In this document: piece after piece, positions 1,778 to 16,673 of the stretch | How positions within the stretch are numbered: position 1 is the stretch's first letter | Layout of the letters: the number at the start of each line of letters is the position of its first letter | Source of the DNA: Vairimorpha necatrix | Taxonomy: Eukaryota | Direction of reading: 5' to 3' | Assembly (NCBI GenBank): GCA_036630325.1 | Contig: CP142737.1 | Span: 496,001 to 560,000 of the forward strand | Length of the DNA stretch: 64,000 nucleotides | Made by a program: the position numbers and the translations under genes | The notes under the pieces: model-generated | What the model saw: the letters and a program-made list of their open reading frames with translations, nothing else | Told to the model about the DNA's origin: nothing | Database searches by the model: none

Positions 1778-1847
1778 ACCCTTACAAGAGAGCGTCCACG
1801 TCGCGGAGGGTGGGACCGATGTTTTTTTTAACTAGGTGCAAATTTCT
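1778..1847 (+). ncRNA. HDV-like ribozyme fold, copy 1 (P1 slightly degenerate)
   Basis: P1 ACCCUU/GAGGGU, P2 AGAGA/UUUCU, P3 GCG/CGC, L3 UCCACGU, GG for P1.1, P4 hairpin, J4/2 C-AAA. Confidence 0.7.
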
Positions 1848-1848
1848 A

Positions 1849-1917
1849 ACCCTCCATAAGAGAGCGTCCACGTCGCGGAGGGTGGGACCGATGTTTTTTA
1901 ACTAGGTGCAGATCTCT
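1849..1917 (+). ncRNA. HDV-like (CPEB3-type) ribozyme fold, copy 2
   Basis: P1 ACCCUCC(1849-55)/GGAGGGU(1877-83); P2 AGAGA(1859-63)/UCUCU(1913-17); P3 GCG/CGC around L3 UCCACGU; GG(1884-85) can pair with L3 CC; P4 ACC..GUU/AAC..GGU; putative catalytic C1909 followed by AGA. Confidence 0.82.
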
Positions 1918-10806: not shown

Positions 10807-13800
10807 ATGAATAAAGTTGATATTCTTTTAAAGTCTAAGTTTTACAAGAGATATTTCTCTTTCAAAATTCAATATTTATTATCTTTATTAAATAAAAAAA
10901 TCACTAATCCTACAGGATTAAATAAACCTTTTGGAGCTTTCAGAAGCCGTAGAAGGATGAAGTGCATAACTTCATTTTATCAGCGGAAAAATCTATGGAC
11001 TAGAAAACTCCAAGAAAATTTCTGTATAGTTAATATGCAAAGAATTCCCGTCGATTGTAAAGACCTAAGAAAATGTCTTGTAAAAAGAGAGTCTGAATTA
11101 GATTCTGCCATTTTTACAATACGAAAGTTTAGACGTAGAAATGCGTCATTAACAAAGATAGTAGTTGAAAAAACACATAAAATTTTATTGATTAAGATTA
11201 TTAAAGCTGAAGGCTTCAAAGTTTTAAATGATAACAGAAAAGGATTAGAAAAAACTAATAAAACAATAAAAGAGATTAGAGAGAAGATAAAACTCTTAAG
11301 TCTCAACATCAACCATCTCTCCCACAAGAGAGAAGAACTTGAGTTTCTTCTTAAGAAGGAGAAACCAGAAATTATGTGTCTACAGGAAACTTGGAGACAA
11401 TCTAATAGATCCCTTAGACTAGAAAAATACACTGCTGTTGAAACACCAAGCAGTGGAAAAAATAAACCAGGTTTAATAACTCTGGTGAGAAACACTGGAG
11501 CTATTAGATGTAGCAAAAAGGGAACTGACTCAAACATTCTGCAAACAGTGGTTGAGTTTAGATCAGAAGGCAAGTGGATTAAATACTTAATCTTAAATGT
11601 CTACATACCACAAGACAGGGATCTCAAAAGGGAGGTGCTGGCCAGACTTTTGTCTCTTCTAGAAAAAGAGAAATTCAGAAACTATTATAGTGAAATTATA
11701 GTAATGGGAGATATGAATATGCAGAGTTCTTCTCCCAAGAAAAAACTAGTAGTAATTGGTTTACCAGTTACGATGAAGTATAACAGCAAAGATGGTACAA
11801 GGATTCTCAAAGATGGGAAAAGATCTAAGAGAAAAATTGATACCATCTTTAGGCTGAAAGAATACGATAATGAGAAGATCATTATATCAAAGTCTTGGGT
11901 ACTAAGTGATCACTTAGTGCTCAAAAAATATATCTCACTAACTGTTGATAAGATCTCTGATCAACTAGTCTATGATAAAAAGATGCTGGAAAATCCGAAA
12001 GTGATTAAAAGGCTTAAAATGAAGTTGAGTAATCAACAATTAAGTATGAATAATCTTCCCGAGATTATTAAAAAAGCTTGTACATCTTTAAAGATCTACA
12101 AAAAGAAAAGGGTCCACACTGGACTTACAATGAGATGGAGATACTTAAAAGTCTTCAAAGAAAAGCGTTTAGCAGCAAAAGCGGTTATGAAAAATCACAA
12201 TGAAATCAATTTAGCCCGGCTCGTAGATATCAAAAAGAGAGTAGAGGATACGAAGAAATTGATTCGCAAAGATAGATCGAAACTTTGGGCTTTGAGAGGA
12301 ATAAAGCTCTTTAAAAGTAATAGATCAAGAGAATTCTGGCAATGGCTGAAAAATAGAAGTGTGTCTATTAAATTGGATCAAGTGGCTCTCTCTAACCACA
12401 ATAAACTTCTCCAGTCTTGCCAAAAAGAGAAGCTAGAAATAGCAAACAAATTTTATGCTGAACTAGCATCAGACAATTTAGATATTAGTATCTATAAGAA
12501 AACAGATCTTGCTGACCTCCCACCAGAGATTACAGAAGAAGAATTTATATCTGCATTAAAGAAATGTGGAAACAACAAAGCAGCCGGTCCTGATGAGATT
12601 CCAACCTAGCTATACAAACATCTACTCATCAATAGAGTAGAGAACAATTTTTTTAGATTCATGTTAACTGAATTTAATAAATACATTAGTGGAGAAAACC
12701 CACCAAAATACTGGAGTATGTCAAACATGATTTGCCTCCACAAAAAAGGAGATGAGACAGATCTGAATAATTATAGGGGAATCTCCTTAATTAACACAAT
12801 TAGTAAGATCTATCTCAAGATAATTAACGACAGATTGACCCAATTTGTTGAATAAAATAACATCATCTCTAAATACCAAGCAGGATTTAGAGAAGGTGAA
12901 GAATGTATGAACCAAATTACTTCCCTACTTGAAGTAGTAAGAAGAAGAGAATTCAGAGGCGTGAACACAGTGATGTGTTTCATAGACTTTGAGAAAGCTT
13001 ATGATAATGTAAGTCACGACTTATTATTTAGTAAGCTAGAAAATCTAGATATCCCCAAGTATTTGATAAATACAATAAAGGATATATATAAAAACACCAC
13101 CATGCGAATAAAAATCGCCGGAGAAACATCAAGTGGCTATGGCTACAGAAAAGGAGTGAGACAAGGATGCCCTTGTTCTCCAATGCTGTTCAATATATTT
13201 ATCAATGATATTTTTGACGGCATAGATGGTGTCTTGATCCCAAGATCAAATACAAGAGTTCCAGGACTGATGTTCACCGATGATATCGTTGTCTTTGGAA
13301 ACAACATTGATGATCTTAATAATAAGATCAAAAGAATTTCGAAATGGGCAGTTGACAACAGAATGAAAATTAACTGCAAGAAGAGTGGAGTATTAGAGTG
13401 GAATGTTAACTCTAATATTCAAGAAATTAGAAGTTTGTATTCCATCAATACAGACTTTGGCGTGATTGAAGAAGTCACAGAATATAGATATCTGGGTGTT
13501 TTAATTAAAAGAAATACACTTGAAGAACATTTGGTCAGAGACGCGGCAATGCGTGGCAAGAAAACCTTAGACGCCCTGATGCCAAAGTTATTAAATAATG
13601 GCATCAACATAATATTTAAGGCGATCTTGATAAAGTGTGTACTAGTTCCCACACTAATGTATGGCAATGAACTTTGGGGAATGTCTAGTACAAGAGCGGG
13701 TAAGATCAATAGGATCTTAAGGAAATCATTGGGGATGATATTCCAACAGGTATTAGTTCCCCTAGATAGATTATTGGATGAGTTCAGTATTGAACGAATT

Positions 13801-14502
13801 CATATACAAGCAGCTTTAAGTAGCTTTAGAGCATACAACAAGTGGAAACACAATAAAACCATAATCTCAGATATAATTTCAATCAATCCGAAAGAAAGAA
13901 AAACCACCTGGTCTACAAGAACGCAAAGGTGGTTAAAAAGATTCGTCGGCAACGACTATGAAACAAGTAACAATGTATCTGTTACTACAAAAATAACTGA
14001 TGTACTAAGAAGAAGGAGAACGATAAATACTTCTGTAGCTGCATCAATAGCAGATATTTATGACATAAGAAGCTCACAGTTGAAATATGTCATAAACAAA
14101 GTCAACAATAGAAAGATAAGAACATACACTAGATTAAGATGTAATCTAGTAAGGTGGTCCTCCTCAATAGCCAATGCAAAGAGAATTCCAGTGAGTTATA
14201 GAATGATGTGCTTTTTGTGCGATGGACCACAAGAAAATTTAGAACACTTCCTGTTAGAGTGCTCGTCATTAAACGAAATAAGATCATCGTGGCGAAATAA
14301 ACTGCCTCTACTAACATGTTCACAAACAAATAACCAAGAAAAAACAAAGCAACTTCTTGGTAATAAGATTGGGTTGAAGAATAATCCGAAACATATAAAA
14401 GAACTCTGCTTGATCATTGAGTTCCTAGACAGGATGGTTGTCTCCAGAGCGATACTATTCAATAACAAACTCAAGGAGATCAACAATAACATGAATAATT
14501 AA
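10807..14502 (+). pseudogene. LINE-A ORF2 (APE endonuclease + RT + CCHC) with two in-frame stops
   Basis: SLNIN, CLQET, NVYIP, MGDMN, IDTIF, LSDH (APE), then RT motifs. ORFs 10807, 12661 and 12907 share one frame, broken by TAG 12607-12609 and TAA 12853-12855 (GAG and CAA in copy 1). Confidence 0.92.
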
Positions 14503-16673
14503 TGAAGATTAATTAAAAAAGTAAATATCCAGAAATGGAAGAAAAATTAAGTTAACTTGTTAACGACAAAATTTATATTTATATAATTGACCTGGGAGAG
14601 GTCGGGCATGATACTGATGCTGTATTTTTTCCGCTGAACTGAGTTGTGTTCTTAAATGGTGTATTGAGCCAGGCGATGTCGTTTTTCATCAGATCCATGA
14701 AATTGGGTCTCTAGTCGTATTATGACTAAGGATGTATCCTATGGGAACGAATTTTTTCTCCTACAAGCAAGGCCGTAAAGGTATGCTGGCGTGTAAGCGC
14801 GATTATTGATGATTTTTCTTTTGCAGTGGAGTTTTTGGTGGCTGTGTGGCTTTTCTTCGTTTTTGCTGATTTTTCTTATCACTCTGTATTGCTTCTATCT
14901 GTTTTCCTTATTTGAATGTATTTTTCTTTAAGCGGAACTGATTTTTTTTTTATATGGAACTTATTATGATGATTTAGGAACGTTTGTTTTGATGCTGAGT
15001 GTCCTTTTTACAATAAACATTTTTAATTTTAATTTTTTTTAATTTTTGACACATCAAAAAAAGATAACAATAAAGATCTTAGTGATCTTAAAAGATACAT
15101 ATCTAGCACTACTGATTTAGTTTTGATTCAGCAGACATATTTGGAGCTTGTGGTATCTCACATGTCAAACATATCATTTTTGACATTTCTTGATTTGTTT
15201 ACCCTGTAAACAAACAATAAAAAATTATAAAAGAAAATTCCATACTTAGGGGTATGGAAGATATAAGAAATAAACATTATAGGTTTAACTTATCTTTATT
15301 GGAGTTGTACTTCCGCAGGAGGTACGACAGATTGAATTCAATAAGAGAGTACAAACATCATGAACTCCAACCCACGCGAGGAAAAGAAATCGCAGAACAC
15401 AACTCTAAAACTCAAGAAGCAAAAGTAGTCCTATAAGAATTAAGACAGGTGAAGTGGACCTAGGAATCACCAAAAATGTAGAAATGATTGACGATATCTA
15501 CGAAATCGATCTACTAGGATGGTTTAAGAAAATTGAAGAAATTTTCCAAAGGAATCAATGGAACGAAGAGACAAAAAACTATTTTTATTCGATCTCATTG
15601 AAGATCAGATTATAGACAAAGCCAATTTGAAAGATAACTACGAAGAAAACAAGAACTACATCATTTCACAGGTGTTCTCACAGAAAAGAGTCGAGAACTT
15701 AATAGTAGAACTGGATAATCAAAAACAAACTGACTACATTTTCTTTGATAACTACATAAACGAAATCATGAAACGAGTAACCATCTACAGTAAGGTATCT
15801 AATTGCAGCCAGAAAGAATACGAACGAAGATCAAAGGAATCCATTTACAGAGGACTTGGCTTAGAAACGGTAAGATATCTTGAGGAACAAAACCTCGAAA
15901 CACAACTTGAAATCATACCAGCCCTGAAAATAATGGAAGAAAACATCATAACAAGATTTAACATACCGAGGAAGATAAACAACATCTCAAGTATAAGATT
16001 CATGAAAAAGTGGTGTAAAGTCCACAAAACTCTGGGACATACAACGAGAGATTGCGGGCAAAGCAACGAAACAAATCGATCAAATATTAGCAAAGTTAAA
16101 AACGAAAAATTTAACCTCAACATGAAGACAGTAGCTCCCGATACCAACTTGAACCTAAAGAATACAACGAGGAAGATTTCAGAACCCAGAGAAAATAAAA
16201 ACACTTTAAACTACGTTATTTTAGAAAATCCTACTATTGTCGAACAACTCGACATTCCACTCATAATCAATAAGGGACACGAGTCAACGGGAACTCTAGA
16301 CTGTGGAGCAGGATTAAACTCATCAAAGCAGACCTCGTAGAACAATGGAATCTTACCACCAGAGAAAGTAAAGAGATCCAGGTAATGTTTGGAAATAAAT
16401 CAAACGAAACCACCAGTACGTTAATAGAATTAGAATTACAGCTGAAGGGAAAAAACGAAACATGTAAAATAGAATTATATCTATTACAAAACTTACCGGT
16501 TAATATCTTACTTGGCAGAGACTTTATATCGAGAAATGAAATTATACTTGACTTTACAAGAAGGAAAATAATTTGGAACAACTCAACCATAAGTATGAAA
16601 ACTAATCAAGAAGAAACAGAATTCCAAAAACCTTTTGAGAAAACGCTCATTACAAAAGATGAAGCAAGATTAC

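Follow-up and report, generated by a model that had tools for sequence, protein, structure and literature searches.

Probable targeting of place and strand, rather than sequence, by a LINE/SINE pair behind the rDNA units of Vairimorpha necatrix

What holds a family of retrotransposons to one strand behind one kind of gene? This question is raised by a 64,000-nucleotide stretch of the microsporidian Vairimorpha necatrix (contig CP142737.1, positions 496,001 to 560,000; hereafter the window), where a large-subunit (LSU) rRNA gene, interrupted by the window start, is followed by an array of a long interspersed nuclear element, LINE-A, and a short interspersed nuclear element (SINE). An original prediction, made from these letters, had attributed the array to an element of the R1/Tx1 type that is specific for a sequence behind the ribosomal DNA (rDNA) or for its own ends. 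Our results instead point to targeting of a region and a strand, not sequence specificity of that type. We think it probable that the LINE/SINE pair targets the first few kilobases behind the LSU of each rDNA unit, on one strand.

The LSU rRNA 3' part at 1-1720 (Rfam RF02543) belongs to one of 18 dispersed units of small-subunit (SSU) rRNA, internal transcribed spacer (ITS), and LSU rRNA, 99-100% alike, in a 15.0-Mb genome of 12 contigs. The SSU upstream matches the microsporidian Rfam family (RF02542), and the units are single here, not paired. Judged by its last helix and a T run, the LSU would end at approximately 1715-1725; the short 3' spacer behind it (1721-1777) varies from unit to unit and contains a relic of the P2-P3 letters of the ribozyme described below. 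Features of the window are on the plus strand unless stated otherwise. We analyzed 57 fetched stretches around the units and outlying copies, 594 kb including the window, and found an array of LINE-A and the SINE behind 17 of the 18 LSU genes.

Location and strand are strongly constrained genome-wide. A pattern for the 3' end had 92 matches, 73 of them exact. Among the exact 3' ends, 69 are in sense and no more than 80 kb downstream of an LSU, a zone that makes up 8.5% of the genome; 65 lie in sense within 30 kb, a zone of 3.6%. The 19 one-mismatch matches were excluded from this count; by inspection, eight are sense copies in arrays, one is an orphan, and ten are AT-rich and resemble chance matches, of which a backwards control gave five. 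Ribozyme motifs likewise lie downstream of an LSU in 43 of 48 cases, with none antisense, and the 3' half of a ribozyme ends 91-184 bases past the LSU end in 17 of the 18 units. For the second open reading frame (ORF2), we took 45 of 77 protein-search rows, about one per locus: all 31 young loci (at least 75% identity) lie in sense within 23 kb downstream of an LSU, and none of 13 sister-family loci (39-72% identity) is sense and downstream, one being antisense 58 kb behind the unit on contig C10. The remaining row is a second family, LINE-B. In the fetched DNA downstream of the rDNA, all 322 overlapping BLAST hits of LINE-A and the SINE are sense, and every match in the window is on the rRNA-sense strand, as originally predicted. 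Other elements served as controls in the same zones (merged tblastn hits): long terminal repeat (LTR) elements gave 18 sense and nine antisense hits, ISXO2 elements eight sense and 11 antisense, and one distant reverse transcriptase (RT) was antisense.

The sequence at which copies insert is far less constrained. In the window, an older ribozyme copy with a weaker P1 (1778-1848) ends in an insertion hotspot, the 15-mer AGGTGCAAATTTCTA, which corresponds to the P4-3'/J4-2/P2-3' end of that copy. The 15-mer occurs exactly three times in the window (1834, 2350, and 2865), never on the minus strand, and its copies (1833-1848 for the left one, then 2350-2364 and 2865-2879) flank SINE 1 (1849-2349) and SINE 2 (2364-2864). 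SINE 2 differs from SINE 1 by one substitution and one indel, plus tail and 5' junction differences; the 3'-UTR (untranslated region) remainder of the older element follows at 2880-3194, and the uninterrupted allele, with the ribozyme joined to the 3' UTR, is present at C4:835657 and C4:799986. Since the incoming SINEs carry the variant GCAGATCTCTA, the duplicated letters derive from the target. The 15-mer is thus a true target-site duplication (TSD), as had been suspected, of 16-17 bp when the preceding T is counted. The target in the window is also the 3' end of a ribozyme, as predicted, though that ribozyme is part of the SINE and not of LINE-A. T-rich tails do end at 2349, 2864, 3194, 5554, and 15047 and the array is real, but the description of each tail as abutting the 5' end of the next copy is loose: only two of the seven tails listed precede the 15-mer, and the tails ending at 5554, 15047, and about 45869 are followed by a 74-bp RT fragment, an ORF1 fragment, and sequence that our script did not map to the family, respectively. 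The heptamer ATTTCTA at 45641, proposed as another TSD, is a chance match formed where a T-rich tail meets a 3'-UTR fragment; in the window, it occurs 27 times on the plus strand and 23 times on the minus strand.

Across the fetched DNA, 82 tails were found, and removal of one chance match left 81 junctions with 62 distinct flanks. LINE-A or SINE sequence accounts for 38 of these flanks, without exception in the same sense; the other 24 were left unmapped by our script, several being family-derived by eye. In 51 of the 62 flanks, the target begins with A (expected 54%; p = 2e-6), and no position beyond this A stands out among 34 mapped sites. That prediction had named random flanks and orientations as the outcome that would count against it; flanks proved diverse, with orientation and location far from random. 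The ribozyme-end site accounts for 11 of the 81 junctions, about ten of them independent, and 31 such motifs are still intact. With ten of 23 independent events in the SINE body falling within five bases (p about 1e-12), the 15-mer is a local hotspot within the insertion zone, not the target. Nor is specificity for the element's own ends required, given copies inside ORF1, ORF2, the SINE body, and non-family DNA; clean TSDs bound such insertions into non-family DNA near an LSU at C6:700554 (inside an ISXO2 element) and C4:834449. TSDs measure 12-18 bp in 19 of the 23 found, and many junctions reflect nesting, with TSDs on either side of the insertion, and not the addition of copies end to end. 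A separate arrangement was seen at C1:485173-495941, where a 5' junction seamless with the target LINE leaves a 5-kb tandem duplication inside an outer 15-bp TSD.

Four full-length copies, 99.9-100% identical, lie on contigs C4, C6 (two), and C7, each 0.7-2.7 kb away from an LSU and in a flank unrelated to the other three. Identical copies in unrelated flanks on three contigs rule out a fixed target and show retrotransposition between rDNA loci. Among rDNA-linked 5' ends, 39 of 52 lie within 2.7 kb of the LSU, which is an upper bound on the insertion distance. Over 35 segments, those further out are less identical to their nearest copy (rho = -0.56; p = 0.0005), and in all nine multi-copy arrays the more typical copy is the one closer to the LSU. 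At the other end, a flank of more than 1.3-3.3 kb is common to nine loci (nine further rows are short matches) and closes the array 8-77 kb behind the unit at eight of them. The ninth locus has diverged most; the flank there bounds what is left of an array, the 20 kb read contain no rRNA genes, and the place is probably a former rDNA site. At C3:784500-792000 (L107, L108), a remnant containing a sister-family LINE and the common distal flank, with no rRNA genes nearby, may be a fossil rDNA site; surroundings of sister-family copies were read for two of the 13 dispersed loci.

LINE-A is 5.76 kb long and consists of ORF1 (557 residues), ORF2 (1230 residues), a 3' UTR, and a T-rich tail; a frame of 1242 codons is unbroken in 11 of the 77 protein-search match rows. 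ORF2 contains the Pfam domains RVT_1 (E = 6e-39) and Exo_endo_phos (E = 1e-5, above cut-off), with a weak zf-RVT match (E = 0.1). Its endonuclease model aligns with that of L1 over 205 residues (Z = 22.7; rmsd 2.6), followed by TRAS1 (21.2) and R1Bm (20.0), fold scores that do not place it in a clade. With these domains, TSDs, 5' truncations, and a simple-repeat tail, LINE-A is a LINE of the apurinic/apyrimidinic endonuclease (APE) type. It lacks a 5' UTR: in 26 of 27 ORF1 5' regions, the element begins at the ORF1 ATG and unrelated sequence precedes it. A ribozyme precedes the ATG in three copies, and in two of these a TSD marks it as the target; a ribozyme serving as LINE-A 5' UTR was therefore rejected. 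A known ribozyme at the ORF1 start was likewise rejected, with seven Rfam matches all far under cut-off. About 157 residues, present in most aligned relatives, precede the ORF2 endonuclease, and residues 70-142 (L086:4415-5575) give a confident RRM/ACT-like model (best Z = 9.1; rmsd 2.3; 64 aligned) that is a candidate tether. For ORF1, no Pfam family exceeds E 0.4, and comparisons with Pfam, the Atlas, and known folds gave nothing above background; its structure model is of low confidence (pLDDT 39), and only two homologs were found among 7998 scored. The nearest named relatives of the LINE proteins are in Vairimorpha ceranae and Nosema granulosis. The first 70 coding bases of ORF1 (window 5629-5700) contain two small hairpins with one compensatory change each, and the ATGAAGG at its start is invariant in all 13 aligned copies; these may form an internal promoter or an RNA signal.

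The SINE, of about 500 bp, combines a hepatitis delta virus (HDV)-like ribozyme, 112 unique bases, the LINE-A 3' UTR, and a T-rich tail; in SINE 1 these parts lie at 1849-1919, 1920-2031, and 2032-2335, with the tail following. The predicted ribozyme belongs to the SINE and not to LINE-A. Our descriptor, a nested double pseudoknot (P1, P1.1, P2, P3, and P4) with C-N-R-A in J4/2 according to the consensus, matched 26 times in the 594 kb, 25 times at the head of a SINE, compared to one match in three shuffles. In 16 aligned copies, 89.7% of the cells in predicted pairs are paired. The Rfam CPEB3 model gives the core 14.5 bits (E = 1.8), under its cut-off of 35, a weak resemblance. The predicted cut site, base 1 of P1, coincides with the 5' end in all 13 SINEs with a TSD, without extra bases; an extra A or T at the 5' junction occurs in none of these 13 SINEs versus six of ten LINEs (2-4 bases; p = 0.002). 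An origin of the unique segment from 5S rRNA was rejected (best local score 22 versus a shuffled mean of 19.4 and maximum of 31), and the segment has no convincing match to SSU or LSU rRNA. The SINE does not qualify as a short internally deleted element (SIDE), i.e., a LINE with an internal deletion, as LINE-A has no ribozyme of its own; no ribozyme donor of the R2 type was found. Behind the LSU in 42 metagenome loci, the descriptor had no match, and the close relative L155 (96.7%) is uninformative as it ends at the search motif.

We favor the following account of these observations. The SINE shares the LINE-A 3' UTR and has an HDV-fold motif exactly at its 5' end. RNA polymerase I (Pol I) would continue transcribing beyond the LSU and through the array, and the SINE RNA would be freed by its ribozyme with an exact 5' end; release from a Pol I co-transcript has precedents in R2 (PMC6765202) and in SIDEs (PMC3414825), as far as the consulted sections of these reports describe. 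LINE-A RNA would start 0-4 bases before the ATG, probably through Pol II initiation of the leaderless microsporidian kind, microsporidian mRNAs being described as having very short 5' UTRs (PMC2803860, in part). As the outcome at the junctions suggests, the ORF2 protein would bind the common 3' UTR and nick the Pol I template strand, the U/A-rich tail would prime with 1-2 of its bases, and the TSD would arise from a second nick at a distance of 12-18 bases. Strand and zone would be set by Pol I read-through or by a replication fork stalled head-on against it, for which Tf1 offers a precedent of fork-barrier targeting in the pages consulted (PMC5371812). We do not favor a protein tether at fixed distance, as the zone stretches from 65 to about 2,700 bases. 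The broad zone, the strict strand, the lack of a consensus, and both LINE-B copies argue for a property of the transcribed zone instead, LINE-B (n = 2) being weak support. LINE-B, whose RT is 33% identical and which has a poly(A) tail, had two copies among those scored (window 43177-45190; C6:721056-724438); both are sense in rDNA arrays and have 3' ends adjoining SINE sequence. New copies land near the LSU inside older ones, driving these and the original flank outward.

A further-reaching version of this account gives the ribozyme a role in the host, which we regard as doubtful. Here the SINE ribozyme, fixed behind 17 of the 18 LSU genes, would now be part of the rDNA unit and make the 3'-spacer cut in pre-rRNA. 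HDV ribozyme cleavage leaves a 5'-OH end, so Pol I would not be chased off and would continue, creating the target zone of LINE-A. We hold it to be just as doubtful that Pol I-guided targeting of this self-reinforcing kind is common to microsporidian LINEs. Weighing against a host role, only 11 of the 18 units have a strictly complete ribozyme motif within 300 bases, with none by the strict test in five; pairing is often weakened in the proximal copies, and the C10 unit lacks a ribozyme.

Several observations also weigh against targeting of place and strand itself. The C10:158274 unit (L092), with the most diverged LSU copy, has no LINE or SINE within 6 kb, and four SINE/LINE clusters lie away from any unit, of which the shared flank closes one and not the other three. 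The arrays are not independent, units having been copied as cassettes with old junctions in common. Copies of 95-96% identity lie 27-30 kb out in the window, the open-frame fraction is only weakly related to distance (p = 0.06), and of the 198 candidates in the protein search, 65 were scored. Of 55 5' ends, only 23 yielded a TSD, and four of these TSDs (22-26 bp) are probably over-extended; covariation among the ribozyme pairs, judged from 16 aligned copies, does not exceed that in shuffles (210/500). The same-sense family flanks would also be expected if the LINE-A particle found loci that hold or transcribe its own family, through the common 3' UTR in nascent RNA or through homology, with the rDNA being only the promoter that makes these loci the most transcribed. 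Two orphan clusters beside older sister-family copies in the same sense, together with some 5' junctions seamless with the target copy (C1 array), are in line with such self-homing. We nevertheless judge it unlikely, given the clean insertions into non-family DNA near the LSU, SINEs in LINE ORFs and LINEs in SINE-only sequence, the clustering of insertions at the LSU end rather than across the whole array, and the lack of young neighbours for most dispersed sister copies.

It is less likely still that LINE-A inserts at random and that only sense copies behind the rDNA persist and spread with the units. Units have indeed been duplicated with their flank, and antisense copies might be purged under Pol I read-through; yet identical young copies sit in different targets on different contigs, other elements are tolerated in both senses in the surrounding DNA, which is poor in genes and rich in transposons, and no young ORF2 locus lies elsewhere among those scored. 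Specificity of the R1/Tx1 type for the 15-mer or the element ends can draw on a hotspot far above chance and on two successive window insertions at it. It is largely refuted by flank diversity, with 70 of the 81 junctions elsewhere, and we consider it very improbable. An assembly artefact, in which repeats next to the rDNA were collapsed or mis-joined, is hardly credible: such sequences are hard to assemble, but every array has junctions particular to it, its TSDs are exact, bystander transposons are nested in it, and its copies grade in age.

To our knowledge, the LINEs linked to rDNA that have been described cut within rRNA genes at a fixed sequence, and known position-specific LINEs follow Pol III genes. 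There is apparently a third route, in which a loosely cutting APE LINE keeps to one strand of the zone behind Pol I units and a ribozyme SINE travels with it. Tx1, to which LINE-A was likened alongside R1, is a sequence-specific APE LINE, and ORF1 of R1 and Tx1 has CCHC zinc knuckles. LINE-A differs from both in having no fixed target and an extra RRM/ACT-like domain; in its ORF1, the model of which is of low confidence, no gag zinc knuckle was recognised. It shares with R1 an APE endonuclease, short TSDs, and tandem arrays linked to rDNA (PMC3414825). The same report, so far as consulted, describes Drosophila R2/R1 hybrid SIDEs that, like our SINE, join an HDV-like ribozyme to the 3' UTR of an APE LINE without a ribozyme and are interspersed with the LINE in tandem arrays, with TSDs of about 14 bp (PMC3414825). 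SIDEs use one fixed 28S site, whereas insertions here fall outside the rRNA gene, at no fixed sequence; only the SINE has a 112-base unique segment between ribozyme and 3' UTR, and it has no R2-like donor that we could find. Dictyostelium TRE5 and TRE3 are, in the sections available, also APE-RT LINEs that are position- and orientation-specific beside a multicopy RNA gene and form tandems with a non-autonomous partner (PMC5391098). The strict orientation beside such a gene is found here too. TREs differ in following Pol III genes at fixed distance (about 50 bp up or about 100 bp down) in tandems without nesting (PMC5391098); here, the neighbour is a Pol I unit, distances range from 65 to more than 2,700 bases across a kilobase-scale zone, and insertions are nested. 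Tf1 at Sap1 polar fork barriers offers a model in which a polar replication block governs where insertion occurs, although it is an LTR element with an integrase (PMC5371812, in part).

Closer to V. necatrix, specific LINEs of Hamiltosporidium tvaerminnensis and Gurleya vavrai also lie mainly behind rRNA operons, between tail-to-tail operon pairs, and co-evolution was proposed (PMC12449221). The main text of that report, as consulted, covers co-location only, with no polarity, target analysis, SINE, or ribozyme. A review of rDNA-transposon cases lists, in the portion seen, only miniature inverted-repeat transposable elements for microsporidia (PMC10946416). In the literature searched, mostly outside subscription journals, neither the polarity nor the target analysis nor the ribozyme SINE turned up in an earlier publication; precedents exist for the individual parts, and it is their combination that is new. 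The favored account offers a mechanism for the unexplained co-location of LINEs and rDNA in other microsporidia and a countable natural record of targeting without sequence specificity. It also adds a predicted HDV-like ribozyme in a group for which the literature searched gave none, and the arrays, with the flank left behind, provide a way to recognise former rDNA sites.

The remainder of the window contains further family copies and bystanders. A young 5'-truncated LINE-A (3195-5554) with an open frame from RT to zinc knuckle, 3' UTR, and tail is followed by the 74-bp RT fragment (5555-5628) and an older full-length LINE-A from the ORF1 ATG (5629-15047), the ORF2 of which (10807-14502) has two in-frame stops. 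Its ORF1 is interrupted by an LTR retroelement remnant with 255-bp LTRs and an integrase (5953-8279) and by an ISXO2-type DNA transposon with terminal inverted repeats (9083-10274; strand unassigned). The ORF1 fragment behind its tail is at 15042-15148. Another LINE-A (22637-28314) is split into three pieces by other transposons, an older SINE without its 5' end and then a 3'-UTR fragment occupy 45191-45866, and an old LINE-A 5' part from the ORF1 ATG is at 46017-47462. No tRNA genes were found in the window. From 15300 to 64000, LTR elements and ISXO2-type transposons are densely nested in both orientations, and a distant RT on the minus strand (49577-50362) belongs to neither LINE-A nor LINE-B. 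Finally, a database protein labelled helicase (P0123) is a read-through of nested LINE-A copies, comprising the end of one ORF1, the start of ORF2, and a second ORF1.

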